From Ascidiella aspersa (lineage: Eukaryota): DNA of 64,000 nt. Numbering within the stretch: the first letter of the stretch is position 1; each line of letters starts with the position of its first letter. Below are positions 5,800-28,604 of this stretch, in pieces. The notes under the pieces are model-generated. The model saw nothing but the letters and a program-made list of their open reading frames with translations, did no database searches and was not told the origin of the DNA. A program made the translations under genes and the position numbers. Location of the stretch: NCBI GenBank assembly GCA_963924565.1, contig OZ004615.1:17546001-17610000 (forward strand). Reading direction: 5' to 3'.

Positions 5800-8700
5800 T
5801 CAAGACTGGCTACTGATGGCGGTCCTGGACGCGCGGATTCTTTCCAGCCGCTTCTCGAGGTGGCTGTTGGTCATTTCCATTTCCTCGATTCGATCCAGCG
5901 CCGTTCGAAGCTAGATTAAACAATGGTTTCGGGTCGATTGGTTAGCGCGCTTTACATTCAAATGCAGCCATGTGGCTTTTGTCATGTTTTATGCTGTTCA
6001 AAGGACGATAAGGGGATTTTTTGCCATTGTACGACACACGGTGGCTTAATTGACGTCGCACTGCAGAACAAAAAGGATGCTATTTGAGGTTTGAAAAACT
6101 GTAAGCCTATAGTAGACCTATATGTTGTAAGGTATTAATAAACAACATTTATACCCCCCGATAAACACGACACGGTTATAGAAAAAAATAAACACCTTAC
6201 GTAATAAATATTCTTAAAATAAATGAAATTGCTAGCTTAAAAAAATCTACTTTTGTAGAATGAACTTTAGTGAACGATGAAATGAATAAAACGCCTGAAG
6301 TTTTTGCAAACGTACGATGTCATCCCAATCATGAAAATATCATTCAGTTTTTAGACGTCTGCACGCAAAGCGTCACCGCTCATTGTTCACACGTCCAATA
6401 TTTGAGACCATATTGACGTACAAAAGACAGAAAAAGGACGCCGTGGTGCATAAACAGGGTATTTTGCCACTTACGTCGCGCATTAGTTTTCGCTTCTCGG
6501 CGCGCATTTCGTCTTCGTTCTTTTCGTAGAACTCGGAGGTTTGCTTGAAGCGCTGTAGCTGGCTCTCGAGACGGGTGATCTGCGAAAAAACAAGTGCAAT
6601 GACTTGTCGCTGCCTAATAATAGCGATCCGTTATAAACGGATCAAGCATATTACGTCATTCCGACCGTTGGGGCAGGAGCCGTACTTTAATTAAACCGCC
6701 AGCTTACACATGCCTCTGACACCTAAAAAGGGCATCGTGGTTTGACGCTGAAACAGCAAATTGCTCTTACATTGCCGTGGTAGGCGGCGAGGTCTTGTTC
6801 CGATTTCTGGAGCTTCAGCTTGTACTCGTTGACTTGTCGATTCGCTTCCCCTATAACAACAAAGAAAGTTAGCAGACGACTTGGTTTAAATTCAAAGCGA
6901 TGATGCTGAGTCAAAAGTAAATAGAACGAAATCCAAACTTTTGCGAATTTTAGTTTGATCTTAATTGTCGAACTTATCTTTCAGTTAAAGGAAACCCCAA
7001 TTATGCATCGTTCAGCAAATATTGGGCCTTTGGTAAAATTCGTTCAGCGCATACTTTGTAAAATACCGTTGGTAAATTGTGGTTTTTAGTTCCATACAAC
7101 GTGCATGGTTGATTGTCCATATCGGAGTGATAACAGTGAGACGCAGCAAGCACAAAAAGCATTTTCTATTTACATAACACTGCTGTTAGCCAGCCTTGAA
7201 CGAGATAAACGGTCATAAAGCGACTTACGAAAACCTACAACCCATAAGGTTAAAGTTTAAATCGTGACACGTAACCTTTTGACTTGAAACTTGAGATCAT
7301 GAAATCACAGTACAAATGGACAGCGAAAATACATTTCGGTTACCCATTCAAGCTGCAGTCTGGCCGCATTTATCAGACGGCGTTTTCCTACTAAAAATAT
7401 TAGGGCGAAACTATAAATAGTTCTTGCGGTTTTTGCGAAGACAGATAGGAGTACAGAATAACAGTGGCCGACTCGTACAGAACGCCATTGTACAAATATA
7501 TTTTTTTAAGTTTCTCCCTTTTATCAGGTTCGAGTTGGAGGAATGTACAGTAGGTTTAACAGGGAAATAGCAGTTTAAAATTCGCTACTAAGTTCGAAAC
7601 AATTGATGTATTAAAAAAGTTTTTTTAAATAAATTACTTTGATTCAAAATTGTAATCGTCATCGTGAATGTTACAGACATGTGCATGTGATACCTATTGC
7701 CATTATAGCTTGTTCGCCTTGTTCGATGTACGCGCCCAGCATGTTGTTTACCAGTTGGCGCTTTATTGCCTCACAATATAACCTGTGAATAAGGCACGAA
7801 TCCTGCTGTGGCGTTGTTGCCAGAAACCACCAAACATTGAAGGGACTATTGTGGCGAGCTTTCTCTAGTTAAGACTGGTGGCGGTATGTTTTAACTCTTT
7901 TTACAAGTTGTTGGTCAGGGCCTTTTTAACTAAACCATAATAAACCGTATAATATATGTAAAATTGTGCAGTTAACCAACTTTTAGGCCAGAATAAGGAC
8001 CATTTAAAGAAATTTAACAACGACAAATACTTCAGTGACTTGATCGCATGCCTACAACAACGACGACGTATGTCGCCTTATGAAAAGCAAATTTGTCTGC
8101 TCGTAAACTTTAATTAAAAGTTATTGAATACCCAAAAGAAGAAACTTTATCGCAATTTATAAACATTGCTGTTGTGTCAAAAAAAATATATATAATTTAC
8201 CCAAGACTTTATGAAAATAGGAATCGCCTAGCTAATTCACCTTGATTTGGAATCAGGAAGGTGGCGTTTTTTATGATTAGTGTAAAAGGATTTACGAACC
8301 AACGCTCTCTGTAGTTTCAACCCCCGTACGACGACAAAAGTAATTGACTCGGCAAAACTCACAATTCGGCGGCGGATAGGTTATTCAAGCGACCTTTCAG
8401 TGCAATTATGAGTAATAGAACTTATGTATAGCGAGTTTCCTTAAGTAGTCCACCCTGGGCTAGCGTTCGTCACATTAGGCGTGACACTGCTTCAGACGAC
8501 TTACGCTGAACTTCCAAAAGTTGCATTTCGGTCAGGCCGTTTTCGGTGACGTCAGACTCGTAGTGGTTGTTATGTCGGTTGTTGCGTTCTTCTGCAATCT
8601 CGTCGCTCAACCGGCGAACCTAGTGAGAGAATGGGTCGAACAAATTTCAGTAACTGGTCAAATTAATCAAGGATTGTTTTTTGTTAAGGCTTAACAGAGA

Positions 8701-11700
8701 ATATTTCATATGCTTCTGTTTTGGATTCGCTTCCAATGCTAATTTTTCGAGCCTGTCAGAGCTGATTTGCAAAACTAGAATGTAGCCATGTTGAAAATAA
8801 ATAAAGAGATATTCGAAACGTTTTGTATGGACTTTGATATTCTTACTACGTTTAAGCTGCAGCACGTATTTAGTTGGGTGTTTTGATGGTTAGAAATGTG
8901 ACATATAAAACAGGGTTTTATTCAATTCTACTTTTATCAGACATTCGTATGCAAACTATTATGTCATTCTTGCATTGTTTTTGTTATTAATCCACTGTTT
9001 AAGAAATTATTTCTAAGAAAAAACTCCCGTTCTTTCAGCGGTACCGACAATAAAGGGTTTAAGAACACAGCTGTGGAAGGTAATGACAAGGTCGTAAAAC
9101 TGTATAAGAAAACAGTGGCATGTGTCCTAAATAGCAGCTACAAGACGCGGCGCCCATAAACTGCTAGCAAACAAAGCTTGGCCCACAAACCCAGCAAAGT
9201 TAAGGGGCGAATAATGACAACTGGTTAATTAGCTCCGAATTTAAAATTTGGATTGGATGTTGAATCAATCGTTGATGCTTTACCGACAAACGTACCTGAT
9301 CTTCCAAATCGCGCTTTTCTTCAACAAGGTGCCTTAGTCGAACATCTGAAAACGAAACAGACTTTACATTATTGAGGTCCTATGAGTAGAACGAAGAAGT
9401 GTTTATCTTATTCTTAACCCCACAATTCGTACACTAAAGAAACTAAACGCTGCTACTTGAACGCTGCTAAACTACTAAAATGAGAAATATTCGATAAAAT
9501 CGACATAAATTAAGTTAGCGAACAATATGTTGATTTTATTAAATACTATTCTGTATATTATAATTCTTTTATTGAAGCAGCTACGAGAAAAGCCGTGTGT
9601 ATTGTTCCAAAAACGCTGCTAAGTTGGATATAATGCCTACAGTCGTAATTTTTTTTTTTAAATAGCTTAAACTTATCAAACGCAAAAAAACGAATTAGTT
9701 TGAGTGACAATCCACGCCCTGTGTGGTACCAGTGTTACCGGAAATATAGTTGAGAATCAAGTCCACCAGGCAGTAATTTTACATTAACTTAAAGCGCATT
9801 TAGCATACGACTCACCAAGTGGTCCCTCTCCAGCTTCTTCCAGCAATTTGGCGACTTCGGGCGAAACAAGTGCAACGGGGTCGGAGTTGTACGAAGAACC
9901 CCCGTCATCGCCGATTAGGACTAAACCTTGCTCCTGAACGAACGGGTTAAAAAACGCTGTTAGCATATGGAGCTTTTGTTGTATCATCGAGGTTCGTAAA
10001 ATTTAGCGGAAGACCAAGCTTACAGACTGGAACTAGTTTGTGCAGAGGAAGGGAGTTGAATCAAAGATTACACTGCATAAATCACTCTGAAAATTACTAG
10101 CTGGCTTTTGTTGAAAATAAGGAACCCTAAAAATGTATGTGTCTGAGAAAGTAGGGGCAAAGAAAACAAGACAAAGAATTGTAAGAAAGACATCAAAAAG
10201 AAAGAAATCTTACTTTTTTCTTATCATTTTGATTGTTCTGCGTCTTTTGTTTCTTGGTGTTGTTTAAAAGTCTGTTTAAGGCCTACACCGGAAGAAATAG
10301 AAAAAAGTGAACAGAAGAAGATTTTTCAGATTATTACAGTTAATATCAAGAAAAGAGATATAATGAAATAGAAACAGAAAGTTAACTTTGAAGATAGCAT
10401 TTTCAAGTGAAACAATAAGAAAATAAAGAATCGTAAGAAATGGGTACCTCGATTTTCTTATCTTTCCATTTTAGCGTCTCTTTTAAATCCGTAAAATCAT
10501 TTGCTAATGAATGGTTTTCTTTCTGGAATTTTTCCAGATCCTAAAATTGAATCTCTGATAAATTTGTTTATAAAAAGAAGTTAGAAAAGTCGTTACACCA
10601 AGATAGTAAGAAGTATCTGGAAGATAGATTTATATACTGTATCTGCTTAGTCACTGCATCAAACCCTTAAAATCAACAAACCGAATATTAACAAAAAAGT
10701 TAAACTGACACAGAATGACTCAAGAAATCACAATATGAATAACAAAATTTGAGAGAAAGCTCTGCATGACCAAACTACTAAAGACAGTGTTCTAATCTGT
10801 TGGTTATGACCAGGGCTGTGGAGTCGGTTTAAAATAACCCGAGTCCGACTCCGATCAAATATGCGATTTTGCAGCCTGTATTTCACCGAGTTACGTAACT
10901 AAAATAACGTGGACATTCAGCAATCCACTTATAGGGTTGTCGTATAATTCATTCACTCACAATACATGGTTGGAAAATATTCCGCCATATAATATTCCAC
11001 CTTTATAATTTCCATTTGGCGACCATATCAGTTTTAAAATTCGGTACTGCGCATGCGCATGTCGGATTAGGGACTCGGGTAGTTTTACAAGGTCTTACTC
11101 GAGTCCCGAGTCCGACTCCGCAGCCCTGGTTATGACAAATGCTTTATTCTTAATATTTAATGTTGTTACTCTAGGTAAATTTTATTTAAAATATATTCTC
11201 GACGAACAGTAAAACAAAATAGAAACTACAAAACACCTTTAAACATAGAACAAAAACTTTAGCAGCAAAAAGCCACATGAACAAATGCTTACTGCTTAAA
11301 AAAGTAGTTTACCTGTATAAGTTCATCTCTCTGACGTAATGATTCTTGAAGGTCTCCAATCTTTTTTTGTAAGCCGTAGTTGATTTGTTTCTGATGTTCA
11401 ACCTCCTGGAAAACCAAATACATATTAAATATCAAAGGAAAATTGGCTTTTGGAAGATATACATGTGTTGTCAAAAAAACGTGGGACAGATTTTGGTACT
11501 TCACAAACATACACATTCTAGTCCGATTGGTGCAAAATAAATACATAAAGGTCAACTGGCATACAATACATGAAGTGAATTTTATGATTTAACTAAACCA
11601 ATAAAAAGCACTTACGGCACACAGTGACAGTATTCAACCTGAGAATGGTTAACTTTTAACTCTGAACAAATGACTTTGTCACATAGGTTTGGAAAGACTA

Positions 11701-14700
11701 AATAAAAAAGACTAAGCTCAGTAAAGTAGCTATCCTAGTTACAAAGCACAGATACATTTATTTTAATCAAAGTCAGATCCGAATAGTCTTAAAAACTAAT
11801 GGCAATGAATTCCTTAAGTTTTCCCACTTACTTATAATAGTGGAAATAAAACAGAAATAGTAAAAATAAAGGGAAAAAGTCAGAAAGCTACAATTTGTTT
11901 TATCAAATAATATACATGAACAACACTTACTACTCCTTTCGACAAACAACTTTGTGAAATCACTAAATCTTTACCTGACATGATTTCTTGTGCTCTTTCT
12001 TGACTCTGTACAACTCTTCTTCTTGTTCCTCTAAAAGGTCTTGCAGCTGCTGTGATTGGTAGGAAAGTTGGGTTCGTTCGTTGTCCAACTGAGCGATTTG
12101 GAGCATTGCACGACGATACTTGTCTTCTATCTCGCTAAGTGCACCCTGCGTACATGAAATAAATTACAAAAATCAGGGCAAAAAAACAACAAAGCTTTTT
12201 AGACCGGAACTAGTCTTAGTTTTGTATTTGGGCTGATATAATTGAAAAGTTCAGTTGTGCTCTGTAAGTAAAATGAATAGCAAACAATTACCAAATAGGG
12301 CACATTTTCCCATTGGTCAGCTAGTGACTTGCAATATTTCAATGTATTTAAAGCTACATTTAAGCATTTTTAAGTGCCATCTGATTTATTTAACAGCTTG
12401 AATTAATCATTTTAATATAAATTCAAAACTGTCCTTTTGGATGACACTAATTTGTTTAATAAATGCTCTAATATGTGGTGACACATAGCCAGGGTATATT
12501 CAGGCGAAAAACATGACATTACAACAATTGCACTTTTGAAAAATAGAAATTTCAATGACGTAGGAACAAAGTCATAACACAACTCAGGCAAGTAGTAGGT
12601 AACTCGTACTGGTGTAAAATAGACTTAACATGGTATCACAGACTCACAGCAATTTGGTCATCTAGGCTTTACCTTAAGTTCATTAACAGAAAGTGACGAC
12701 TTGTCTGCATCTCCTCCATCAGTAAAAACTTCATTTTTACTTGTTCCAGGTGTGTATGATTGGCTTCCATAGGAGCCACTACTTGCCACACTGGTGGCCT
12801 GAAAATGTAAATAAATAAGCAACATGTATTTATTTGATATATCACAGGGCTAAATCAAAGTGATGCATGCTCGCCAGGACTATTCACAAACATGTTTTCG
12901 TGATACAACATATAGGAATACTATACAGGTGCTCAATAGATATTAAAAAAGATTTATCATGACATAAAGGGTTGAAAAACAGAGTGCTGTTAGGTTGTCT
13001 CCATTCTGTTCAAAGCTTGGGGTATTCAAATAAATGCTTGAAGTCTAGAATGTTTCATAGGTTTACTTTTCTAAGCTTGTCAGAGTTTTTAAATAAATTT
13101 AATAAATTAATCATGTTGTGATTGTTGCCTGTTACTTGGGTGGCTATGGATGGAACATTTGCCTTACTGTAACATTCCAAGCAATGGTTTCCATATAAAA
13201 TTGAATATCAACATAGTGGCTTTGTTCTGAAATGAACCTCTATAGTAAGTGGTGACTTGAACAGGAAGTAATTAATCATACAAGCTTCTAAGGTGCCCTT
13301 AATTAACATAAATTAGAAACAACAGTGTTCTTGTAAGGAAAACACAATTTAAAAAGTAATTTTACACAAAATCCAAACTTTCACGGGATTTAAAACTAAA
13401 CACTATAATTTGGCATGTTGGAACAAATAGGTTTTTTGTTTTAAAATGAAAAAACAAACAGTGTCATGTAAACAGCAATGTTAAATGAGTGACACCGATC
13501 TATGAAAAATCAGTTACTTTGATGACAAAACTTAGGATTAAAAGGCAGTTTCCACAATCTAAAATGTTACCATATGGTGTTTAAGATAAACATTGGTCAT
13601 ATAGATAGAATGATATTCAGCCTTAACAATATGCAGCCAAAACAGGATGTATATTAAAAGAGGCAGGCGTTGAAATCATTTAATGGTTAATTGTATACCA
13701 GCACCATTCTAATTCAAGAAAAGGCTCAAAAGCCTTATACAATTGTCAATTGTCATATTGCTAGGCAATTTTTTTTTATGCCAAAGTACCCAATATATTC
13801 ACTTTCAATACACGGATTTTTACTTTATAACAATCTTGTAAATGGAACTAATTTGGCACAGTTCAACAAATTTATGTTATTCCTCAAATAGGCCTTTATT
13901 CCTTTTCTTTAAAATCATCTAAATTAGAGGTCATTAAACTACAGCTTGCAGAGTTACTTTTTCCAGCATGTAGCCTTAATCAAGCTTAAATACGGTTATA
14001 TATATTTTGCTATGCTAAGAGATTTTTTCATTAAAGAAGGGCCTAAAACTTTTTAATGCCGACCCTTAAAATAACTTTTGGTTTGCGTGGACCAGGGTCA
14101 AGATGAACTTACAGCGTAAATTACTGTCAAAAACAAGTAGGATTAAAAAAGCTGCGGTTTCCAACCCAAAAATGTAAAACTGAGACCATGTCTCAATATA
14201 TTCAGTGTTAAAGCATTTTTTTAATCTATCTAATTTATTTTCTACTTTTCAAATAATACACTTTCAATTAGGCCTTCTTGGACCCCCAAAACTAGGACAT
14301 GTGCCATCAGAGGGTGCATGGAACCCAGTTTAAGAACCCTGTCTTTAAAACCTAATTTTACTAACAAAAATTCAAATTCTGATATACTTTTACATTCCAA
14401 ATGCTTTTTGAATTAGCATCCTTTTCTCTGAGGGTGAAGACTTGATTTCCTTTTGTAGCCAGGTTGTTTGTTCTGTCCTGCTGTCGCTGCGATATCTCTT
14501 TTAATATCTGACTGTCTTTCTCAGTAAGGGGATCATTTTCAGCAGCACTGTGAGCAGCATTGTTGCTGTTTTCATTCCCATTATTATCGAGTTTAGTATC
14601 AATGCTATTTTCAAGCTGGGTTGGATCACCCATTGAAAGTGCATCAGCATTGGTTTCTATTGTGTTTTCCAAAACTAGATTTTCATCTACAATGGCTGCA

Positions 14701-17700
14701 TTGTTCGCTTCATTAGAAATTGGAATGCCCTCACTGGAGGACTGCTTTACAATAGGTGAGGATGGGATACTTTTTTCACTGCTTGACATTTCATCGTAAT
14801 CCATATCAAATTCTTCGCCTTCGTCATCACTGTTGACTGATTCTTTTATTGAATCAGTTTCAATAAGTTGGTCATCGTTTGTTTTAAAAGCTTCGTTTTC
14901 AGAATCAGATGAGGCCACCGACAAACTCTCAGTTTCACTTTGCTCTGTGGAATGCTTGTCATTGATTTCAAGATTTCCTTGAAGCGTAACATCTTCATTT
15001 AATTTTGGAGCATCAGTTATATCCTTAACTGTGTTTTGCTTCACTTGCGATGTATTTATTTCTTGGATATTGTTTTTATTTAAAAGTTCTGGGTCATTGC
15101 TGGGTTCATTAGCGATTTCCCCCTCGACTGGCAGTAAAATAGGATTTTTTAATTCTTCTGCTTCACATGAATTGCTTTGAGAAGAAATTTCTTCTGTCAT
15201 TGAATTGACAGCATCACATTTATTTTCATCCTCAATTTTATTTTCAGAAATTGCCACATCTTCAGCATCCGATAACTCATCCATTTCAAATTCTTCACCT
15301 TGGTCGCTGTCTGTTGATGTATCACTTTCAACTTGGACCTCAGTTTCATTAACCGGAGGATTGCTTTCAATAGTTTTAATTTCAGTTGGTGCATCATCAC
15401 CAGAAAAATCTGTTGTAGTATCAACAACCTCATCCATTGGTTGAAAACCTGATGATTTTACTTCAGTTTTCTCTAAATTGATTCCATTTTCGCTCTCAAT
15501 TTCATGGTCTATCACACCAGTGGTTTCACTCATTTCTGTATCAGCAACACTGTCTTCCACAAAACTGTGGATGACATCATCAGTCTCCTTTTGCTCGTTT
15601 AATGTCTCTGGTAGATGTTCTAAAGTTTCATCAACCGCAACCTCATAGGCAAGATTTTCTAGCTGTGTACCATCAGCAAGATTTGATGCTTGGTTGTGAA
15701 CATCAACATCCTCTTCAGAACAACTGGTTTCAGATTTATCAGACTTTACACTTGGTTCAGTATTTTGAACTTCTGTATTTGAAAACTGAACAGTGTCAGA
15801 CATATTAGAAGCATCTTTGTGATTAGCATTCACAGTGGGGACGTCTTGTAAAGTTTCAGACATTTCCTCATCACTTGTCAAACCTTCTTCTATCTCAAAT
15901 TCATCACCTTCAGAATCACTGCTTGAAGATTCACTAGATTCACTTGAGTTGTCATCATCGTCGCTAAGTAAAACAGTTTCAAATTCAGGTTCAGTGGGCG
16001 ATAAGAGTTTAGCATCATTTTGCAAACTTACGTCAGTGTTTTTATTTATTTCAGAATTTTCTACAGGCAAATCATCTTTTTTGTTACTGCTTGTTGTTTC
16101 TTCTTCCGATAAACTGCTGTCACCATCCTCTTTTATAATAGGTGAAATAAAGTCATCATTTTCTAGCTGTTTTGTATAGTCAGTAACATGTTGCTCTGCC
16201 AAATTATGTTCAAGGGTGACAATAGTTTTGGTTTCTGGAATGTCTGCTTCATCTTTTATAATAGGTGAAATAACGTCATCATTTTCAAGCTGTTTTGATA
16301 AGTCAGTAACATGTTGCTCTGCCAAATTATGTTCAAGGGTGACAATAGTTTTGGTTTCTGAAATGTCTGCTTCATCTTTTACAGAACTAGATTGCTGTTG
16401 AATGCCATCAACTATTTCAGAAACAATAAGTCTGATGATGTCATCAGCTATTTCATGCTGCAAAGGTAAACTTATACTTGAAACTTCCATGGATTCCGGA
16501 TCAATTTCCGCACTAGTTTCCTCTCCATTGCTTTCTGAATTTATGCTTTCTTCTGGATATGGTGACTGCATGCTTGACTCACACTTGGACTGGGTCATGA
16601 CATTAATATCAGCACTGATTTCACTCTCACTGTTGGTTTCGCAGCTATTGTTTGTATTTTGCTTAACAACAGCCATTTCCTCAGTATCTCTAGCATTTTC
16701 AGAACTATATTCTGATTGTTCAATTGTATTTATGACATCGGAATTGCCATCACTTTTTGCTAGCGCATCTGTATCATCAAAATTGCCTTTCATAACAGAT
16801 TGGTTTGTTTCATCCTCAGATATATCCAAGTTTAAATCCATTTTATCAGAATTACGGGAATCTAAAGTGTCGTCTGATAAGACAGTTCCAGACATGCTAA
16901 CTTGAATAATAGGAATGGGAATATTTTGATACACACCCAGTTCCTGATAAGCAGAGTTAATAATTAAACCTGTAAGTTCAGAGGCTTGTTTGTTTAGGTG
17001 GGATGGTATCACAGAATAATTGTGTTCGGTATCAGTTTCTTCTTTTATTGTCAAACCTTTATCATTTGAGGTTTCACTGTTTTGGGAAACATCTGACTTG
17101 CAACTGTCACTTTGGACACTATGCTCAATGTCAGAACTGTAGTCTGCTTCGTGCTCTTGATTGTCTATATCTTTAGACACACTGTCTACTACTGAAGAAA
17201 TACAATTGGTAACATCAGATGTAACCGCTTTTCTATCATAATCCATAATTTCATTAGAATTTGACGGCAAAATTACATCCACATTTCCTTCAGCAGGCTG
17301 TTGTAACAGCATACCTGTGTCTTGTAAAGGCTGTTGATTAGCATTTTTACCTGGTAACTGATTATCTACAGGTAACGTCCGATGTATTTCAGCTAAAATC
17401 TCAGCACCACTTGGTGTTTGTCTTTCTTCTAGACTGGAATCCACAGTAGCTTGTGTTTCCTGTTGTAACGTTGTATTTATTTGCGCAGCGATTGGCGGTG
17501 CAGTGCTATTTTCTGTTGTTACATCAGATGAAGGGTCGTTCCCCATTTTGAAGTGTCTGCTGTCGTCGACCACCAATCTGAATGAACAACGCTTCTTGGA
17601 AAAACCTTGCCTGTCAGGGGAGGTGGAAGAATCCAGTTCTGAAGCAAGCCCACTTCCTTGTGCTACATCTAGCAGTGTGCATGATAGTCGAGCTGCAGTG

Positions 17701-20700
17701 TTGTCGGCGTTCAGGGCGTCACGGGTACCAGCGACACTTGATTTCCCCTGCACATTATGAATATTTTCATGCACTGAGTCAACTTCCTGAGTGGCTTCTT
17801 GCCTGGATTTCTTATCCAAATCAATAGATATCTTGGTACTGTTGAGGCTGCTGTGAACTTTATCTGTATTGCCACTTTGCAGATCACTCACTTCCAATTG
17901 TTTTTCTAAGAGTGCTTCAAAAAGGCTAGTTGAATCAAAGCTTAAGGGTGCAGTTTCATCAAAATCAGAGGGCATGTCACAAGTTATGTAAAGTATTTTA
18001 GATTTCCGATTGCCAGAGGAACTTGTTTCAATGTGTTCTGACTCTTCAATGACCTCTAGTATGTCAATCATTGTGTCAGATCTCTTATTTTGCTCATTAT
18101 CACAGAATGACCCCTCATTTGTATCTAAATTTTGTGGCTCACCGATAGGACTGCGATGTCGTGCAGTTGTTGAGCTCAAAGTCTTACTAGTTCGTTGCTG
18201 GGTTAGTTTTGGCGATGCATCACTTTCACTGCTGCTCAGAGTCCCACTAGAACCTCTGTCAGAGCTTTTTTTCTGTACTTTCCCAGAGTCTTGAGAAGTG
18301 CCAGGTTCAGAAACCACATTTTTTCGTTGCTGATTTCCCATTATTAGTGAGAGACAAACTTGTGCTATTTTGGAAATTGCAACTGGTGGAAAGGCAAAAC
18401 ACACAAAGCAGTTTTGTTAATCTATAGGTCCTGAGAAACTATAAAAGTTCTTCCTAAAATCCATTGTCTGGCATCATATGCAAAATAAAGAGAAGTAAAT
18501 AAACAGGGTTTTTTAATTCCTTTGTAAAAACTGTTTAGTGTTGGTTAACTGACTTAGATACTAAATGGTGCAAGATAATAGCAGCCCAACAGTCATGGCA
18601 AAATGTATAAAAGTATGAAACCCATCTCAGTGTTGCACTTATTCCGATAACAATTTAAAGCATTATACACAAATTATAGAGGCAATACAGGTAATCTTTA
18701 GCTATTTAAATTCATCTAACATAAAGTACAAATCTTCCAATACATAACTTTAGTTAATTGATTTTATTAGACCAATGTTAAGTTACTGGCTGTACATACA
18801 ATGGGTTGCACTGACTTTACCTATAAATACCCTCAACTCAATGTTACAGCTAGCAACTGAAAGCACAGTCCAGTTGATACAAGGTATCTTTACTAAAACA
18901 ACAACATAACATGACAGTTACCTACAACACTACAAGGGCAGATATTAAAGCCAATTACAATAAAATGACTACCATTAAAATTACCCAACACAAAAAATAA
19001 AGCACAATAGAACTGTCAGCAAAACACTCAATTTTATTTTATACAATACTATAAATAGCTAATTAAAATGGGAAAAATAGTATTTATAAAATATTATTTG
19101 CAACTTGGCATTTATATATGCTTTTAATCTAGGGACTAAACCAACAATTAAACATGCTGTGAACAGTCATCTGAAGGCTTAGCAAGCACAGTCACCAATC
19201 CCACTTTGTAACTTACAAAACATATCCAGGCGCAGGCTAAATATTTACCAGGCCAAAATCAGGAAACACACCTACTCAGTTACATGGTTTACTAATGCGG
19301 CTTTTATAGAGGCACTGACGCAAGGAACATATAAGAGCAAGTGACCATAATAATCCAAATGACTAATTCAATTATACATCTTCAAAGAACAGAACAGGCC
19401 TTTCACTCATCAGCCTTTAAATGGTGACAGTTAAAAGAGTTGAAATAAGTCTCAGAAAAAATAAATCAGTTAAACAAAAGTCGCTACAGTGGGCGGTGGG
19501 TTTTGTTTAGTTACTTGAATAAACCTTTGTTCATTCATAATGAAAAAAGTCAGTTTTTTATGAATAGTATTATAGTAACTGCATTGTAACCTTTGTTTGG
19601 CATTCTAGACTTAACAAAAACATCCAACTGCTGAAAACAGACTACTATTTCTCCTGTAAAATATCAAGTTAAGAATGTTCATGGTCAAATCATTTCATTT
19701 ATAAAAATTAAAAAACTTGGATCAACGTTTAAATTAAATATAAGCCCTCTACAGTCAAATATCCAAACACTTTTTTTTAAACAATTCCATTGACAAAACT
19801 AATTGTATTTTTTTTACAAGTTTTTAACTATTGTAGAAAATAACCAACAAAAATTTAACAAATAACTGACATTAAACAACAAAATATTAAAAAAACAATA
19901 AACAAGACCTAATTAGCTTTTATACAGGCAGCATTTTATACAATGAATGTTCAACTGAATGTACATACAATAGCAATGGCAAGTTAAACATACCCATTCA
20001 ACCATGAGGCCTTTAAGCTAAAAAGGCACGCTTTGCCAACAAAGAAAGGTTTTTCATTTGAACATAACACTATAGGGAACTCAAGGTATAAAAGGTTAGC
20101 AGAATAGACTACCTAAACTAACTGTCTGCTTTTAATGTCACTTAAACCCTGCTGTGCTAGACAATCTAAGACTCCATTTAGTCAGGAGTTCTAAAGTAAA
20201 CAAGAGGTCAAAGCAAATAAGCAAGCATGTGCTTTCTTTCTGTCACAGATCTTAGTAGATCATTAACTGAAACACGTCCTTTTGAGAAATGACCAACAGA
20301 CAATTGAGTTTTTGTCCTATTCTTTAAGGGGACTAAAATTTGTGGGCTAATAAAAACCATGTCCTGAATATATATATATTTATATATTTACAATAAGCAA
20401 TATTACAATTAATAGTCTAACAGAAAACTTAAATCATGGCCTATAAAGGAAAATCCATACAATATTTATTCCTGTTAACTGACTTAGCATAGCTCTAGAA
20501 TAGCAGACATTTGCTGGAGAGTAATATTTCAAAATAGGTGCTTTCACTGTAAGTCATAATAAAATATTTATGATCTGCCTTTAAAAGCCATAAATACTGT
20601 TCGTGCAAAGTTTCCACCTGAAAACATGTAACATAACACATACGGTGATGTGGGTTTTATTAGCTGAAAAAACTGTGCATTCACTTTCTGTTGGGTACAG

Positions 20701-23700
20701 ACTTTAACAGTCAGTAGACATAAAAATAATTGATCACATAAATAACAAATTAATACCGTTTGCAAATAATAACATTTTGAAGGATGTTAAGTGTTTCCTG
20801 TTGTGAATAAAACAGTATGAACATGTACACGAACGCTATAAAGACCAGAACAAAAGCATGCCTAATTAACTTTTGTTATCTATATAATGGTACATTGTAT
20901 GTTTTGTAGAACATGCTAAATAAATTAGTTTGTGCTAGCTCAAACTACCAGTTATAAATGGCCTAGCACAGAGATAGTAAACTACTGACCCGCAGGCAAA
21001 ATTATCAATTATCCTAGGTTTTCAGCATCCCAATTTTTATTTTAAAATTACTAAAAGTACTATGAAGTAAAAAAGTATTTATAACAAGGCACTGTTAAAA
21101 ATACTGTTTTTTACAGCATGGAGGCCCATGACAAACATATCTCAACACCATAAAAAATTTGTTGCACCTTTTTTAAACCTTGTTACTTTTTTATACGAGT
21201 GCAAACCCTAATTTTCATAACTTAATTCAATACAAATAATTATACAGAATTTGTTCCAGCCTAGTAGTTGTATCACCCTAGCATTGGAGCAAACTAGACT
21301 ATATAAGTCTATTTTTTTACTCAACAAATTACCTCAGCAAAAAAATTTATAGCTTTAAATATTTCCACTCATAGGGTGATAAAAATCACAATAAAATTGG
21401 TGTTTTCTTCCAAATTTAGCTCATTTTGTATAATATGAGATTATTGGATAATATAATTATAAAGGGGTTCTCTGACGAAAGAACTCAGAAGAACCCCTTT
21501 ATAATTATATAGTGCCTGGCAGAAACAGTATATTCAATATAATTATAGCTGTTGCCTACCCGAGAATTCAGGAGCTGAGTTCTTGCACTTTTGTCATCCC
21601 AATCTCTTTCTGTCTTATCTTGTGCCTGCAAAATAAGAATAGAATAAACAATGGGAATTGTAACAAATTCTATTGATTTCATATTATTTGTTTTATAAAG
21701 TATTTATTTAAACTTGTGTCACATTCCTAGATAATAATACTTATAATTAGTGAAATCTATCTGCATTTGCAAATCGGAAGTACTACCTTTGAAAATGCAG
21801 TTAGCAAGTTTTAATATATATTTATCAAATAGCATGATTGTTTATAATTCGAAAACAATATTGCTGATAAATTATAAACAATTATGATTTTCGCATTTTG
21901 TCCAAATCATGTTTGTCCAAATGCAACATTTAACAAAAAAATGTTACATTTAACTTGAAATAAATAATTAACACAAAAGTTGAAAATGTAAAACCTGTAA
22001 AAAAAGTAAAAACTTTTTACAAAAACCTCAGTTAAAAGATTAAGACTGCCTTCAGAAGGCATTAATAAATGCAAAAATTCATTATTTACATTAAATAATA
22101 AACAGCCATTTCTTCACAGGAATATCACTAAATCAACAATAATATTTACAAACTTTTTAAATGTTGTTATGCACAAATGTTATATCTAAGATACATAACC
22201 AAAACATAAATGCAGAAAGAAAGTACATAAAACCATGAGCTTTGTTTTTAATTCTATGGAACCAACAATCAGCAGAGGCATATATAATAAATCTTATTAA
22301 CATGAGTATAGTATTATAAGATTATTACTTTTAACTATGCAAGGTTAATTTCGCCCTTTAGGTTAATGTAAAGGCATTTTCTATTACTAAACTTCAAGTG
22401 CAAAATAGATCAAATACTTTTACAATATTATATTTATACCTGCAAAAAAAAGCAACAGCTTTTGCAGAGCTGACCAAAACAACCAAGCATAATTGAACAG
22501 TACCAATGGCAGAAGCAAAAATACACTACTCTAGAGGGAAAACTACTCCGTTATTAATAAGGACACTGAATTGATCGCACAGACAACCCATGTAGGCACT
22601 CAGAAGAAAAAAATCGACAAAAGTCAACTCTGATTAATGCATTTGCTTCCTGTCCGATGCAGAATGAATTGAAGTTCTTTGCGATAAATAATCTTAGTCA
22701 CTTGTGCGCAATGCCAAATCTCTCAGATTTAATCACAATCAGGCAGAATTGATGAGAACTCAACAAATATAGGATGCAATATGTTGCAATATAAGTTATT
22801 TGTTTGGTTTGTTGTGGTAATGAGCTGTTGAGAATCACAATTTAAAACCAGTGTTTAAAAAACATATATATATAAATGATTGAAAAAAATGCCTTTCTGT
22901 TATGCTGTTTGATCAACAACAAATGAAAAAAAATAAGTGTTTATTTTTAAAAACTTGTTTCAACAAGGTGAAAAAAAAGTTAAGTTAAATATGAGATGTC
23001 AAAACTAAATTTTCACATTTTTAAAACATTCAATCATTAAAAAAAATATAATGGGTTAAAAAAATTAATAGTAGTAAAAAAGAATCTACCAAAAGAAATC
23101 CTAATTGTGAGATATTTGTACAGCGTAAATTTGAAAAAAGCAAATATTGGCAGTGTACGGTTTCTTTACTAAGGAATAATCTATTGGGCAACTGAAAATG
23201 TATCTCTACTGCCATCTGGTGAAAATATTTATTAATAGACTGACAAAGTGTATGCATGGTATACAACAGGTTATGTAGTAGCTACCTGTAACATTTAAAA
23301 TCTGCCTTGAGTTGTTCTACATGCTAAAGAGAAATAAAATGGAAATAAAAAATGTTAGGAAAAAATGTTGAAATTTTTAATCATGCAACAAAAAATAATT
23401 TATAAAATTAATAGTTAAGTACAACATAAACACAGGGATATTATGTTAAAAAACAAAAGAAAAAATGCTGCGTTTAGTTTGAACAAAGGTGTTTTATGTT
23501 TCTTATTTATTTTACTCACTCTGTAAAACAGTTTAAAGAATGGCAATCCTCTTAGACTTCCCTGTGCTCCCTGAGAAGAACAAATGTAACCCAGTGCATA
23601 AATGTATTCCCAAGTGTGAAAAAAACATTACCTGACATGCCCTCAATAGATTATTGGACAAAAAAGGTCGCTGCATGTTTGTTTCAAATAGATTAAATGA

Positions 23701-26065
23701 TTGGCACTTTGAGCGTTTAAATAAGGAAGTAAAATACTATTGGCCAGAGTCAACCCACGAGTTTTTGCCCACATCATGAAGTCATGCAAATTGATAACAA
23801 ATGGTGTCAATTTAAACTAAATCAAATTAACCTAAAAATCCGCTGAAACAAAAGCATTTCGCTAAATTTAATCATTGTGGCTGTTTAAAACCAATCACAC
23901 AAAACATACATATTATTTGATTTACTATTTTATCCCAAAACTTCAAACGTTTTGTTTGAAGCTTACATTTTACCTTATACAGTCTTTATAATAGATTCAC
24001 TGACCTGGATAATGCATTACTCATCAAGGGCAAGCACCATGTACATACATATACACAATACACATATATTTTTAGCGGGTATGGACATTTAAAAAGACAA
24101 TTAATCCATTTATGTAACACAATGACATTGAAAAGTTTTTTATCAAGCTTAGCTATTATTTAAATTATATATACATTTAACTTAAAGATAGTAGCCAAAT
24201 GAACTCTGAAAGATTTGGCCAGCACAAACATATGCATGGCAGATAACATTCTAAAAGTTACCTAATTAATCATGCAGACACCAAATGTGATTAACACCAA
24301 ATTAAGCTGATAAACATACACTTTAAAGGTCATTAATCACGTTTTAAGATATGAAAACAACCCCCAAATAATGTAAACCTGAAATTTAAATTCGGAAAAT
24401 TGTTGCTGCAATGTAAACCTTATTTTAAAAAAGTGTTATTACAGTGGTGATTAATGAAATGATTTTTTTAAACACCTAGCTTTATACAAAAGATAGTTTA
24501 ACACTAAAATATCTGTGCCACAATATACTGGTTATTCTTTAATGCACAGATTTGTTATTCAAACATCTTTTGAGATAAAATGATCAACCCATAATTCAAT
24601 TATTTAGGCAAGGTGCTTAAAGAAATTGGATAAAGCACAGTAATTGCAAGTTAAGTTTTACTGCTACAAAACATTCTTCTGTGTTTCTAGAAATAATTGT
24701 ATTTAGCAAAATACTTCTAATTTAAGACTAATTTAGGTTAGACAGCATAAAAAAAATTGTACAGCAACAAAAATCTTGCTTTTTAGAAATGTAAATAAAA
24801 AGAACTTGTGAAATGTAAAATCTGTTAGTAATTAGCAAAATGCAGCCTTATAAAAATACATTTGCAAACTTATAATTGTTTCCTCACAGCTAAAGACCTT
24901 TTCCGAAACTTGACACTCGCGAAGTAAAATTTGGTGATAGCTTCCACGATAAAATTGACAAAATATAGCGGTTCCAATTTCACAACAAAAAGGCAAAATT
25001 GGATTCGAATCCAAGGAAACGACATTCTTCTTCGGACAAACCTAATTGTGGAAATTTTATTTGTCTCGATAGCATAAGTAGTGTCAAAGGCTACATGTTT
25101 GCAGTTTGGATGTGTTAATTGTTTCGCAGTTGTTGGCTTGTGACATCTGTTCCTAATTTGCATGAAAAAAATGGCCACCTATAAACCTATTAAAGATTTT
25201 TCAAAAATTGTTAAGTTTCACCGCGGTTATTGGCCTATTGCAAACAAATAAATGATTGAGCATTAATAAAGACCAATAAACTATTAAAATGTGATTTCGC
25301 TTATTAAACTTACTTCACGTTGTTGACGCTCTAATTCCCTCATCCTTATTTCTCTTGCTTCAATTCTGGCAGCTCTCTTCTGGGCAAGACGAGCTTCTGC
25401 CTAAAAGTGGGGTATTGCCAAAAAAATGAATATTATTACAATAACTATACGCCACATTTTTTTAATTGGTAAACTTTAAAACATAATTTTTTTCAGGGAG
25501 TTAGACAATATTTGTTTTAGCATTAGAAGATTTAGTTCATAAAAAATACCGCAATAATGGTATATCGTATACCACTAAATTTATCACCAACATTGGGCAT
25601 AGGCATCGATCCGAAATAATTTGGCATCGCAATTTTTCAGTTGTTAAATATTAGCAAACTAATTGTAATTCTGTGATTTGTTTTTATGTATGTGACTATT
25701 TTTACATTTCAAACAATTAAAAACGAGCTGAAGAATTCATATAGGTGTTAATAAAAAAAAGGGAAGAATAAACACAAATATTGTGTTTTAAAGCATCTTA
25801 GACACTTAACTGTGCACAGACAAATACTTGTTTAAAAATGTTGCGTTAATCTAAAATGTTGTAGAACAAACAGTTGTTGATAAAATCTATGTGAAGAAAA
25901 ATATCTTAAAATTAGACAAAACTACAAACAACGCATCACACAAAACCATTCATATTATCACACCTCTTTAGCAATTTGACTTAGAGTTTCATCTTCAGCG
26001 TTGTGTGTCCTTCCAGTGCGACGCCGACCTGCACTACTTGGACCATTTGTGCTTGAGCTTGACAT
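5800..26065 (-). CDS. LRRFIP2: Leucine-rich repeat flightless-interacting protein (LRRFIP1/2 family, most LRRFIP2-like); spliced CDS ~461 aa with both cassette exons
   Basis: Phase-consistent GT-AG exons: 26065-25964 ([17 protein letters not shown]), 25400-25314 ([29 protein letters not shown]), 21625-21560, 12798-12673, 12145-11975 (..[25 protein letters not shown]..), 11405-11313 (..LRQRDELIQ), 10540-10448, 10282-10214, 9933-9816 (..LEEAGEGPL), 9345-9296 ([11 protein letters not shown]..), 8619-8505, 6850-6771 ([13 protein letters not shown]..), 6579-6475, 5910-5800 ([25 protein letters not shown]..stop). These match recalled vertebrate LRRFIP motifs ([48 protein letters not shown]). A single pro-ortholog of LRRFIP1 and 2 is possible. 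Confidence 0.93.
10214..10540 (-). CDS. Two frame-preserving LRRFIP cassette exons: 93 nt (10540-10448) and 69 nt (10282-10214)
   Basis: ttttag|[31 protein letters not shown]|gtaccc and gtgtag|[23 protein letters not shown]|gtaaga, both phase 0-0. The first resembles the recalled vertebrate LRRFIP2 segment DLQETLLWKDKKIG-AL. Confidence 0.75.
10811..11128. mobile_element. Non-autonomous hAT-type MITE, 318 bp
   Basis: TIRs CAGGGCTGTGGAGTCGG / CCGACTCCGCAGCCCTG; perfect 8-bp TSD GTTATGAC; subterminal ccgagtccgactccg repeats. Confidence 0.9.
14361..18341 (-). CDS. Giant (~4 kb) acidic, Ser/Glu/Asp-rich, predicted disordered ORF in an LRRFIP intron, same strand; probable alternative giant exon or nested gene
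   Basis: 1347-codon stop-free frame (14361-18404) in AT-rich DNA. First ATG at 18341 (MGNQQRK..). Strong acceptor tgtgttttgcctttccaccag ends at 18383. Weak phase-0 donors after 14394 (AAT|gtaaaa) and 14388 (AAA|gtatat) are in frame with exon 12798. Confidence 0.8.
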   Translation of the reverse strand: MGNQQRKNVVSEPGTSQDSGKVQKKSSDRGSSGTLSSSESDASPKLTQQRTSKTLSSTTARHRSPIGEPQNLDTNEGSFCDNEQNKRSDTMIDILEVIEESEHIETSSSGNRKSKILYITCDMPSDFDETAPLSFDSTSLFEALLEKQLEVSDLQSGNTDKVHSSLNSTKISIDLDKKSRQEATQEVDSVHENIHNVQGKSSVAGTRDALNADNTAARLSCTLLDVAQGSGLASELDSSTSPDRQGFSKKRCSFRLVVDDSRHFKMGNDPSSDVTTENSTAPPIAAQINTTLQQETQATVDSSLEERQTPSGAEILAEIHRTLPVDNQLPGKNANQQPLQDTGMLLQQPAEGNVDVILPSNSNEIMDYDRKAVTSDVTNCISSVVDSVSKDIDNQEHEADYSSDIEHSVQSDSCKSDVSQNSETSNDKGLTIKEETDTEHNYSVIPSHLNKQASELTGLIINSAYQELGVYQNIPIPIIQVSMSGTVLSDDTLDSRNSDKMDLNLDISEDETNQSVMKGNFDDTDALAKSDGNSDVINTIEQSEYSSENARDTEEMAVVKQNTNNSCETNSESEISADINVMTQSKCESSMQSPYPEESINSESNGEETSAEIDPESMEVSSISLPLQHEIADDIIRLIVSEIVDGIQQQSSSVKDEADISETKTIVTLEHNLAEQHVTDLSKQLENDDVISPIIKDEADIPETKTIVTLEHNLAEQHVTDYTKQLENDDFISPIIKEDGDSSLSEEETTSSNKKDDLPVENSEINKNTDVSLQNDAKLLSPTEPEFETVLLSDDDDNSSESSESSSSDSEGDEFEIEEGLTSDEEMSETLQDVPTVNANHKDASNMSDTVQFSNTEVQNTEPSVKSDKSETSCSEEDVDVHNQASNLADGTQLENLAYEVAVDETLEHLPETLNEQKETDDVIHSFVEDSVADTEMSETTGVIDHEIESENGINLEKTEVKSSGFQPMDEVVDTTTDFSGDDAPTEIKTIESNPPVNETEVQVESDTSTDSDQGEEFEMDELSDAEDVAISENKIEDENKCDAVNSMTEEISSQSNSCEAEELKNPILLPVEGEIANEPSNDPELLNKNNIQEINTSQVKQNTVKDITDAPKLNEDVTLQGNLEINDKHSTEQSETESLSVASSDSENEAFKTNDDQLIETDSIKESVNSDDEGEEFDMDYDEMSSSEKSIPSSPIVKQSSSEGIPISNEANNAAIVDENLVLENTIETNADALSMGDPTQLENSIDTKLDNNGNENSNNAAHSAAENDPLTEKDSQILKEISQRQQDRTNNLATKGNQVFTLREKDANSKSIWNVKVYQNLNFC
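16135..16380 (-). repeat. 123-bp (41-aa) in-frame tandem duplication within the giant ORF
   Basis: KDEADI(S/P)[31 protein letters not shown] twice; offset exactly 123 nt (16201 vs 16324). Confidence 0.95.
21450..21547. mobile_element. Short fold-back insertion, probably a diverged member of the same family, with 12-bp TSD
   Basis: atataattataaaggggttct-ctga..tcag-a-agaacccctttataattatat. Contains CTGACGAA. Tail agtgcctggcag. Direct repeat aatataattata at 21450-21461 and 21536-21547. Confidence 0.5.
23520..23570 (-). CDS. Candidate 51-nt LRRFIP cassette exon ([17 protein letters not shown])
   Basis: Acceptor ttgttcttctcag and donor gtgagt. Only the phase-0 frame is open. TGCATG on the minus strand at 23382-23387 in the downstream intron. 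No homology support. Confidence 0.4.
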
Positions 26066-26444
26066 GCTAAAACCAAGAGAATTTTTTTATTAATATATAT
26101 TTGGTTTTGAGTATTTGCCAATCGCCCATCTGACTGGCCTATATTTCATTAACAACAAATTAGCAGTGTAATGTAATAGAACCAAATGTACTTAATGGAC
26201 CGATTTGCTAAATTTATGGTTGAAAAAGTATTTTTATTCAAAAAAAAAAACTGTAAAGCATTACAAATAAACTTGGAAAAAACATTTTTATTTGTGTTTA
26301 TCAAACAAAAAATTTGTGACGTGTTAAGCAATGTATACTAAGAAAAACAACCAAAAAACTCTCTAGTTTACGATTTGATAATAAACTTTGTACCATTAAT
26401 AAATTGTTTTTTATTCAAAGTAACAAATATAAAATACTGCTTAC

Positions 26445-27975
26445 CTAACAAAAATCTATTTGGATTTCAGTTAATTTAGGTAAGATATATGCTCTTCTTT
26501 AAAATGCAAGGAAAATACAGTTTTGCCAACCCCAGTTATGAACTTCCTGCAATACAATACTTTTAGAATCAGTGTTGTTTACTAAATACTTAGTAATGTG
26601 TATTAAGGGGACAACGGCCCAGAAGAATTAATGAGAAAAAACATTACATTTATCTGAAACTTAAAATAATATATAGGTCTCCTTCTAACAGTTTGTTTTT
26701 ACTATTATGCATTTCATGCATATAAATGACATCAAATCCAATAGTAAAGTTTAAATTTATAAAATAAACAAAAAACAAAACAAAATTAGGCGCTGGTCTA
26801 CAATCCTAAAATAATGCACATTATGTCAAGTATTAATAATAAATAATGAATATAATAATACTTGACCCACCCACATCCAAAAGCTAACTTGCACCATAAC
26901 CAAAATATTGTGCGTTTATTTATTTATTGTGGTAGGATTCCAGACCAGCGCCCAAAATTAAAATATATAACTTTTGAGGTTAGAAAGTTAAGCAAGCTTT
27001 TTACAATGAAGGCAATACAAAATAGCTTTAAGGGTCAAGGACTAGTTAATTCTGCTATTTACTATATAACAAGACATACCTTTTTACGGTGACAACAGAA
27101 TGCAATTGAATTTCCTTTCGCATCAAGTTTTCTGTTTTTAGGCTTATCACGTTGGTATTATTATGTTATTTTGCTCATTAAGCAAAAAAGTAAACTGTTC
27201 TTATGTACCTATGCAATACAAATCCAAAGATAAAATGTGTTATTTACTTAAAGTTATGAGTAAATAATATTGTTTATTTTGTATGCCTTTATAGGTTTTC
27301 TTTTTAATCAATTTTTGACATCTGGTCATGTTTTAAAAACTCAGATATCTGGACTAAAAATTTAACATTATTTTAGCTATATCCTGACTAGCCCCAACCA
27401 GCGTAACGAAATAAGACAAGTAATAAAACTTAGCTTTTGTCAAAAAAACAATTTGATAATTTCAGCAGCTGAAACCACCTATAATTTTAAACCCGCTCAA
27501 CCGTGGACAATTTTTACATAGAGTACTAATAAAGTAAAGTTTTAAAGGTCCAGATGAGAAACTTAAAAACAAAATGGTTTTTAAAATGAGAAACTTAAAA
27601 CGCCAATTCCTTCAATATTTTTTTTACAAATGTTAAAAGCGTACAAATGAAACTTTTTATAAAACCAGCAATTGAAAATAAACTTTAACATATTAAGTTT
27701 TACCGCTAGATGCGGTATTGCTTTATCCTAATTAGGTCTGTAAGTTTACGTTTTAGGACAATCATAAATTTTGTTAGCGGTTGGATATTAGTTATATCTA
27801 TTTGCTTTTTTCGTAATAATAAAAGCAACGTCGGCGATAAAACCAAACTGATCTTGTCAAATCCAACGTTCAGACACATTATATAATTTTCGAAACCAAC
27901 TTACTTAACTTTATTGTTTTTTGAAAATGCCAGGAACCAGGAGCAGGAACGGATCCAAGTCACGAGACCTACTTA
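26445..27975 (-). other. Candidate LRRFIP 5' UTR exons (~27960-27905 and 26546-26445) and promoter region
   Basis: The ATG exon starts directly after an acceptor (ttggttttag|C ATG), so an upstream exon or spliced leader is required. Donors gtaagt at 27904 and gtaagc at 26444, acceptor gtattgcag at 26547. CpG density rises above ~27400. Confidence 0.35.
26787..26955. mobile_element. Small TIR element sharing an internal motif with the 29.6-kb element
   Basis: Inverted ends ggcgctggtct..aatcct / aggatt..agaccagcgcc. Confidence 0.55.
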
Positions 27976-28126
27976 TCCCGCAATGTTTTGAATATGCCAC
28001 AATTAAAAACAAAAATTACGCAAACCTAAACTAGATAGACATTCAGTTTATCATTCATTCCGAAAGTATTTTTTTCACACCAACTTTATCTACCGAAGCT
28101 TTGTGGAAATTAGCGTCACTAATGCG

Positions 28127-28604
28127 CAGGCGCGGATCCACGACTTTTGTTTGGAGGCGGGCATTGCATTTTTTTAAAGATGGCGTTACAAAGTTAGCCT
28201 ACGGTACATTTAAAGTAAACTGACGCCATATAGGCTATCGTAGTAATCTGAAGAACAACACACGATTTGAAATGTTTGAGGTTGAAGAGGTGTTACTTTC
28301 AATATAAAAGCTACATTACAAAGATCAAAGATGTTATCGACTCGCGCAAAGCGAAAAAACACCTTTATGTCGTTTAAGTTGACAAAAGTTTCCTTTTCGA
28401 GGGTCCGATGACATGAGGCGCACGTTGCCTTTAGCTAGCGCTGAAACGATTTTATCATAACGCGGAATAACATACAAAAAAAATAGGATTCGGGCACTTC
28501 TGTAGTTTAAACATGTTGCAAATAGGCTGGCTACATTAAAACAAACAAAAAATACAGTTTTGTGGGGGTATGGCTACGTGCCACTTCCCCTGGATCCGCC
28601 TCTT
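28127..28604. mobile_element. Degenerate MITE
   Basis: Inverted ends caggcgcggatcca / tggatccgcctc with G-rich subtermini. Confidence 0.5.

Follow-up and report, generated by a model that had tools for sequence, protein, structure and literature searches.

The LRRFIP coiled coil forms a dimer and is a partner of Flightless-I and MyD88, and AKAP12/gravin and smAKAP are myristoylated AKAPs. A giant exon of an ascidian LRRFIP gene, which we describe here from a window of 64,000 nucleotides of Ascidiella aspersa DNA (assembly GCA_963924565.1, contig OZ004615.1, positions 17,546,001 to 17,610,000; coordinates below are those of the window), can be compared with both kinds of protein. Like AKAP12/gravin and smAKAP, the acidic arm encoded by this exon has an MG start, a disordered chain and amphipathic helices in the register 2, 5, 6, 9, 10, 13, 14, 17; unlike them, it has no Pfam AKAP match, no FA motif of the RI-selective AKAPs and, near the N-terminus, no cysteine or strong basic cluster, and its helices, three to six in number, are joined to the coiled coil of LRRFIP. 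As in AKAP79/150, the arm of Ascidiella aspersa has a PxIxIT-like string near a helix; the string, however, occurs at the chance rate and is not conserved in place. The ligands of DPY30 (the ASH2L SDI, BAP18 and AKAP95), which place a helix in the groove of a D/D fold, offer a further parallel, and position 6 is bulky in several helices of the ascidian arms. The known DPY30-binding helices belong to nuclear complexes, whereas the ascidian ones sit on an arm that is likely myristoylated.

A survey of 23 AKAPs placed the main expansion of these proteins at the base of the vertebrates (PMC12083921, section 4). If the mechanism proposed below is true, a tunicate anchoring protein would have been gained through one fast-evolving exon of a conserved gene, so that AKAP surveys would miss lineage-specific AKAPs, and cAMP signalling would be linked to the LRRFIP/Flightless-I module. 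The earlier note on this DNA knew of no description of such a protein, and we found none either: the portions covered of the literature on LRRFIP, AKAPs and ascidian PKA anchoring describe neither the long isoform nor LRRFIP as an AKAP, term counts in PMC12203939 gave no mention of LRRFIP or tunicates, and the part available of a study of shrimp LRRFIP reports only short variants, all cytoplasmic (PMC3585381). The giant ascidian exon is apparently undescribed before now.

Long Exons in the LRRFIP Family

The ascidian locus is the same gene as LRRFIP1/LRRFIP2 (PF09738), with matching N-terminal and coiled-coil exons, and long acidic alternative exons recur in this family. The long forms of vertebrates have their acidic exon after the coiled coil, whereas in ascidians it comes before it. 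N-terminal long acidic exons are also found in a lobster, an amphipod, a priapulid, a nemertean, a brachiopod and a stick insect, several of them starting with basic and hydrophobic residues. The extension in crustaceans, the priapulid, the nemertean and the insect keeps the AEARLA helix of the N-terminus, while the ascidian exon drops it, and the ascidian exon alone in the family carries repeated amphipathic helices.

Among the 399 LRRFIP proteins that we fetched, 269 start with MG, most of them vertebrate LRRFIP2, and 20 have a basic cluster and a C-x-x-S end (a CaaX-like prenylation signal) after the long acidic exon. Membrane signals carried by alternative exons thus look like a theme of the LRRFIP family, to which ascidians have added the repeated helices. 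In arthropods, the long N-terminal exons contain strings that resemble the FFAT motif (EEFHDAL, CFYDAVSE and DFDSAQE). It is possible that the FFAT-like strings of the crustacean exons, together with their conserved basic start, form a membrane-contact tether.

The Giant Exon and Its Transcripts

The giant open reading frame is a stop-to-stop frame of 1,351 codons (14361-18416, minus strand) within the intron between the exons 21560-21625 and 12673-12798. The gene to which it belongs is laid out as follows.

14388..18341, minus strand: giant alternative LRRFIP exon, coding part; 1,318 codons, about 4 kb, acidic and mostly disordered (open reading frame, RNA joint, orthologues)
18342..18750, minus strand: likely 5′ leader of the giant exon, with short upstream ORFs and an approximate upper limit (RNA depth, upstream ATGs)
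12673..12798, minus strand: common exon, joined in phase 0 to the giant exon or else to the exon 21560-21625 (joints 12797/14387 and 12797/21559)
5803..12145, minus strand: LRRFIP coiled-coil exons (PF09738), 52-100% identical per exon to Phallusia
21560..26066, minus strand: N-terminal coding exons of the short isoform, at 25964-26066 (starting MSSSST), 25314-25400 and 21560-21625
16118..16363, minus strand: stretch of 123 nt (41 codons) duplicated in tandem in the giant exon, 92% identity
17736..17789, minus strand: QEVDS block, the best-conserved block against Phallusia (score 65, reached in 0 of 200 shuffles)
14388..14462, minus strand: exon-end motif, basic ... D ... W-x-x-K, kept in four of four ascidian species
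18135..18161, minus strand: basic block RHRSPIGEP, aligned with RRRSSLGAP in Phallusia and resembling RKRNASGAP in L007

A profile search matched PF09738 to two minus-strand exons that flank the giant frame, and RNA joints connect the giant exon through 12798 to one of them (11975-12145; E 5e-14), which places the LRRFIP coiled coil in the same transcript. The closest protein found was that of Phallusia mammillata, with 81% identity over one coiled-coil exon and 100% over the last exon. The animal, whose genome has 308.6 Mb, would by this measure be an ascidian near Phallusia. The chain encoded by the giant exon has a net charge of -195 over 1,318 residues. All of the strings singled out in the earlier note lie where it had read them (MGNQQRK at 18321-18341, the helix called A here at 16938-16991, IPIPIIQVS at 16896-16922, and helix B at 16395-16445). 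The basic block RHRSPIGEP is a possible phosphorylation site.

The transcript evidence comes from about 6% of the RNA run X5 and the full contig set of run X3, which is presumably RNA as its contigs are spliced, both mapped on 11300-28300. The GT donor at 14387 is joined to 12798 in phase 0 by two X5 reads and one X3 contig (depth 23.6), and the giant exon is skipped, with a joint to 21560, in four reads. The giant LRRFIP exon is real, conserved and in frame with the coiled coil, and it is also skipped; the earlier suggestion of an alternative exon in a gene for a coiled-coil protein is borne out by this in-frame splicing.

At its 5′ end, the giant exon showed neither a splice joint nor loose ends in RNA of low depth, and the N-terminal exons of the short isoform (21560..26066) showed no joint to it. 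Sense RNA has a depth of 7-9 at 18130-18485 and of about 3 at 18486-18663, and falls to zero above 18753. Given that no joint leads into its 5′ end, the giant exon is likely an alternative first exon, presumably with its own internal promoter, at the low RNA depth of this region; the short upstream ORFs in its leader complicate the call of the start site. The long isoform would lack the N-terminal AEARLA helix of the short isoform, which starts MSSSST or MSTTG in ascidians. An acceptor-like site near 18396, which hinted at an internal or trans-spliced exon, was rejected, since no joint or loose end was found there at a depth of 7-9.

Sense RNA also covers the intron 13000-14387, downstream of the giant exon, so that some transcripts may stay unspliced here or end differently, with the reading frame closing at 14361. 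In a second individual, the flanks of the motifs in the giant exon had 13 replacement changes, four silent changes and two in-frame insertions, and the motifs had no changes, numbers that are too few for significance. Run X4 gave five pieces of 151 letters with 95-100% identity, which are of no use as an outgroup.

Orthologous Exons in Other Ascidians

The long protein of Phallusia has 1,155 residues, starts MGNAPGK and reaches the same common exon after about 775 residues. In Ciona intestinalis, the long isoforms have an acidic arm of 658 residues that starts MENSAY, and there is a second, shorter record. A fourth ascidian, L007, is represented in metagenome contigs by three loci of one species among 594 candidate stretches; its exon has MGNTPAK two codons past an in-frame stop, and a phase-0 donor before the same common exon. 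The W-x-x-K motif at the exon end is shared by all four species, which argues that the exons are orthologous. Three protein searches returned long tunicate isoforms for Phallusia and Ciona only, in two of them among the best 120 matches. The Phallusia long isoform and most of the Ciona ones are filed publicly as thyroid receptor-interacting protein 11, despite their LRRFIP domain.

A Predicted Myristoylation Signal

18321..18341, minus strand: MGNQQRK, predicted N-myristoylation signal with Gly2 and Lys7, without Ser6 (from the sequence; MGNAPGK in Phallusia, MGNTPAK in L007)

Three of the four species share a start of the form MGN-x-x-x-K, which supports myristoylation. The Gly2/Lys7 start that the earlier note had pointed out therefore holds in these three, while the Ciona model, which may have been cut short at its 5′ end, lacks Gly2. 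NMT prefers Ser6 and Lys7 (PMC7044312), and the MGN starts have Lys7 in all three cases and Ser6 in none. The first 40 residues of these species have net charges of +2, -5 and +2, with no cysteine and no strong basic cluster near the N-terminus. The giant arm is likely myristoylated at Gly2, and, given the lack of Ser6, of a nearby cysteine and of a strong basic cluster, the resulting membrane anchor would be weak.

Amphipathic Helices

16938..16991, minus strand: helix A, best candidate for docking of PKA RII (collinear counterpart in Phallusia KHVSQLALLIINSALREA, with a score of 43)
16395..16463, minus strand: helix B, with the strongest hydrophobic face of the exon and no positional match in Phallusia
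17166..17216, minus strand: helix C, third amphipathic helix, island at 17178-17216, bulky at position 6 (its Phallusia counterpart in the alignment is EVCSCVFELIESV)

When residues 348-680 were modelled with AlphaFold2 from the single sequence, the mean pLDDT was 40, a low confidence overall, and long helices formed at only three places: 370-398 (C), 447-467 (A) and 627-653 (B). The picture of a few hydrophobic islands in a disordered, acidic chain was right as to charge and predicted disorder, and incomplete in that the island of helix C had been missed.

Small residues at helix positions 6 and 13 favour RII binding, while a bulky position 6 resembles the ligands of DPY30. The face of helix A reads A-L-T-I-I-A-Y-L in Ascidiella aspersa and V-L-A-I-I-A-L-A in Phallusia, so that both species have Thr or Ala at 6, Ala at 13 and a hydrophobic residue at each of 14 and 17. 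In most of the other helices position 6 is bulky, being V, L, I or M in helix C and in most of the L007 and Phallusia helices. The conserved positions of the AKAP helix are 2, 5, 6, 9, 10, 13, 14 and 17 (Falcone et al., PMC12083921, section 5), and helices of the AKAP type, with 14-18 residues and hydrophobic at these positions, are present in the arm, helix A having Thr at position 6. The RI-selective F/Y-A at positions 1-2, of the smAKAP type (PMC12083921), was seen in none of 17 registers.

A stricter AKAP pattern was matched in the giant exon only by helix B (DDIIRL), with a probability of 0.19 for at least one match in shuffles; helix A (KQASEL) did not match it. FFAT-like, RVxF, LxVP and PKA-site patterns were not above chance in the exon. 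Pfam scans of the giant exon and its islands gave nothing relevant, and Pfam AKAP families such as RII_binding_1 (PF10522) had no match in the window pieces, the L007 pieces or the Phallusia and Ciona long proteins (P0001, P0126). An uninformative search of the genome with PF10522 found no match anywhere, a PDB sequence search with helix A and PIIQVS gave no matches at E up to 10, and the ESM Atlas gave no usable match.

Given that motif statistics are weak in a single exon, the support for the helices comes from the orthologues and not from this sequence. Helices were scored with our own hydrophobicity scale on the positions of PMC12083921, the scale and thresholds having been set after the sequences were seen. 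At a score of at least 6.0, 12 helices were counted in the 3,864 residues of the four ascidian exons against 1.71 in shuffles (equalled in 0 of 500), and a single one in the 15,311 residues of 17 acidic non-ascidian LRRFIP regions, where 2.64 were expected. The ascidian excess appeared under all six settings (17 against 9.24 in the weakest, p = 0.01), and the controls showed none. Per species, the counts were 3, 4, 6 and 3, of which only that of L007 was significant by itself (6 against 1.42, p = 0.002), the Ascidiella aspersa exon having 3 against 1.61 expected (p = 0.21). The AKAP-register helices of the earlier note are thus supported by the four exons together, but neither by this sequence by itself nor by a match to a Pfam AKAP family. 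What the test shows is that amphipathic helices have been selected; it does not name their partner.

The earlier note had asked for an alignment of orthologous exons in which the islands are compared with their flanks, and the outcome was divided. Against Phallusia, helix A ranks second among the 18-residue blocks, behind the QEVDS block, with p = 0.095 over the whole exon and p = 0.001 in a collinear band that was picked after the alignment had been seen. Its entire 16-residue face, including IINSA, is kept between the two species, while the flanks share about 22% identity. Among all windows, helix C belongs to the top 3% (band p = 0.06). Helix B and the PxIxIT string are not kept in place, with about 30% of windows scoring as well as helix B, and 47% (at 18 residues) or 8% (at 12) as well as the PxIxIT region. 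Against Ciona and L007, no block was significant; the best match of helix B was the Ciona helix ELLVNEILNVIQ (top 3-4%), and helix A has pattern-level counterparts in both, without a clear sequence match, so that its conservation in place is drawn from one species pair.

The Calcineurin Candidate

16896..16913, minus strand: PIIQVS, a PxIxIT-like match within IPIPIIQVS (16896-16922), not conserved in place

PIIQVS lies in a disordered region and fits the pattern P[^PG][ILVF][^PG][ILVF][^PG] given in 10.1101/632547. The probability of a PxIxIT-like match in the giant exon was 0.48 in shuffles, and the five ascidian sequences have 1, 2, 1, 1 and 0 matches, the last being the second Ciona record, against 1.57, 0.94, 1.06, 0.71 and 0.58 expected. 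The aligned place in Phallusia reads NIVQNP, without the proline, which the second Ciona record also lacks there, and none of the five sequences has an LxVP motif. Calcineurin docking by the giant arm, which the earlier note had read from this string, is unsupported by these comparisons.

Mechanism and Alternatives

The mechanism that we favour would begin with an alternative, likely first, LRRFIP exon that swaps the usual N-terminus for a long acidic arm. Myristoylation of this arm at Gly2 would tether it to a membrane, its three to six amphipathic helices would serve as docking sites for D/D domains, in the case of helix A most likely that of PKA RII, and the LRRFIP coiled coil would be held at the membrane beside anchored PKA. 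As judged from sequence comparison, this is the most likely single mechanism, one that may well be true without yet being probable. The genome encodes an RII D/D domain that lies upstream of exons with cNMP-binding domains, and a complex model that paired helix A (residues 443-476) with this domain in duplicate scored 0.30 against a mark of 0.34, which counts neither way, the RII chain having been modelled without its native first exon, with eight codons read from the intron and no alignment, and controls not having been folded. A wider proposal, which we hold with more doubt, is that ascidians have built an AKAP that would place PKA, and perhaps DPY30/R2D2 proteins on the other helices, beside the coiled coil that binds Flightless-I and MyD88, and that LRRFIP genes across animals switch membrane anchors by means of giant acidic terminal exons, with a myristoyl group in ascidians, basic N-termini in crustaceans and CaaX-like ends in vertebrate long forms.

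The helices might instead dock D/D proteins that are not kinase subunits, such as DPY30, DYDC, SPA17 or ROPN1L, in which case the arm would be a structural scaffold with multiple docking sites. DPY30 has a groove of the same kind for amphipathic helices from ASH2L, BAP18 and AKAP95, and AKAP helices are bound by SPA17 and ROPN1L (PMC13063893, PMC8339350). The genome has four RIIa-family and five Dpy-30-family matches, and position 6 is bulky in most of the helices, but helix A, which in both species is small at 6 and 13 and hydrophobic at 14 and 17, has the RII pattern, and we consider this alternative unlikely, though a serious rival. We would give a similarly low rank to the view that no D/D domain is involved and that the helices are generic amphipathic elements on a myristoylated spacer, made for other partners such as vinculin, talin, FAT bundles or the membrane surface. 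Any one-faced helix shows the pattern 1-4-5-8-9-12 on which the earlier reading was based, the number and place of the helices differ between species, and the acidic LRRFIP arms of other animals have other likely membrane signals and no such helices; such a view does not, however, account easily for a full face of helix A kept between flanks that have diverged so far.

A combined scaffold for PKA and calcineurin, the full model of the earlier note, like AKAP79 and with PIIQVS as the calcineurin site, appears improbable. The pattern is matched at least once in every species (PIIQVS; PQIFVS and PAISVN; PAVVIC; PEVNVQ), in some cases 4-95 residues past a helix, and fungal PxIxIT motifs are described in 10.1101/632547 as turning over fast, as they may have done here. 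For the human proteome, however, the same source sets 33 validated motifs beside 21,791 matches without validation, and the chance-level counts, the lost proline and the missing LxVP speak against a calcineurin site here. Least of all do we expect the islands to be incidental, so that nothing would matter beyond the MG start, the length and the motif at the exon end: the weak statistics of the single exon and the missing Phallusia match of helix B would fit such a view, but the joint enrichment in four species, with none in the 17 controls, and the collinear conservation of helices A and C would be left without explanation. The preferred reading remains that of a likely myristoylated LRRFIP arm that may dock D/D domains, most likely PKA RII through helix A.

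Additional Observations

15885-15911, 15276-15302 and 14796-14822, minus strand: three copies of an acidic motif, G-(D/E)-E-F-(E/D)-(I/M)-(E/D), in the giant exon

In the more general form G-(E/D/Q)-(E/S)-F-(D/E)-hydrophobic-(D/E), the acidic motif has one similar copy in L007 (at about 5430), and the long exons of vertebrates carry similar forms (GQSFDFDD and GASFDFDE). We take this G-x-x-F motif to resemble TOS or adaptor-binding motifs. Elsewhere in the window, a gene for an SLC6/SNF sodium:neurotransmitter symporter lies at 41323-52575 on the plus strand, with PF00209 matched by 6 of 94 open frames.
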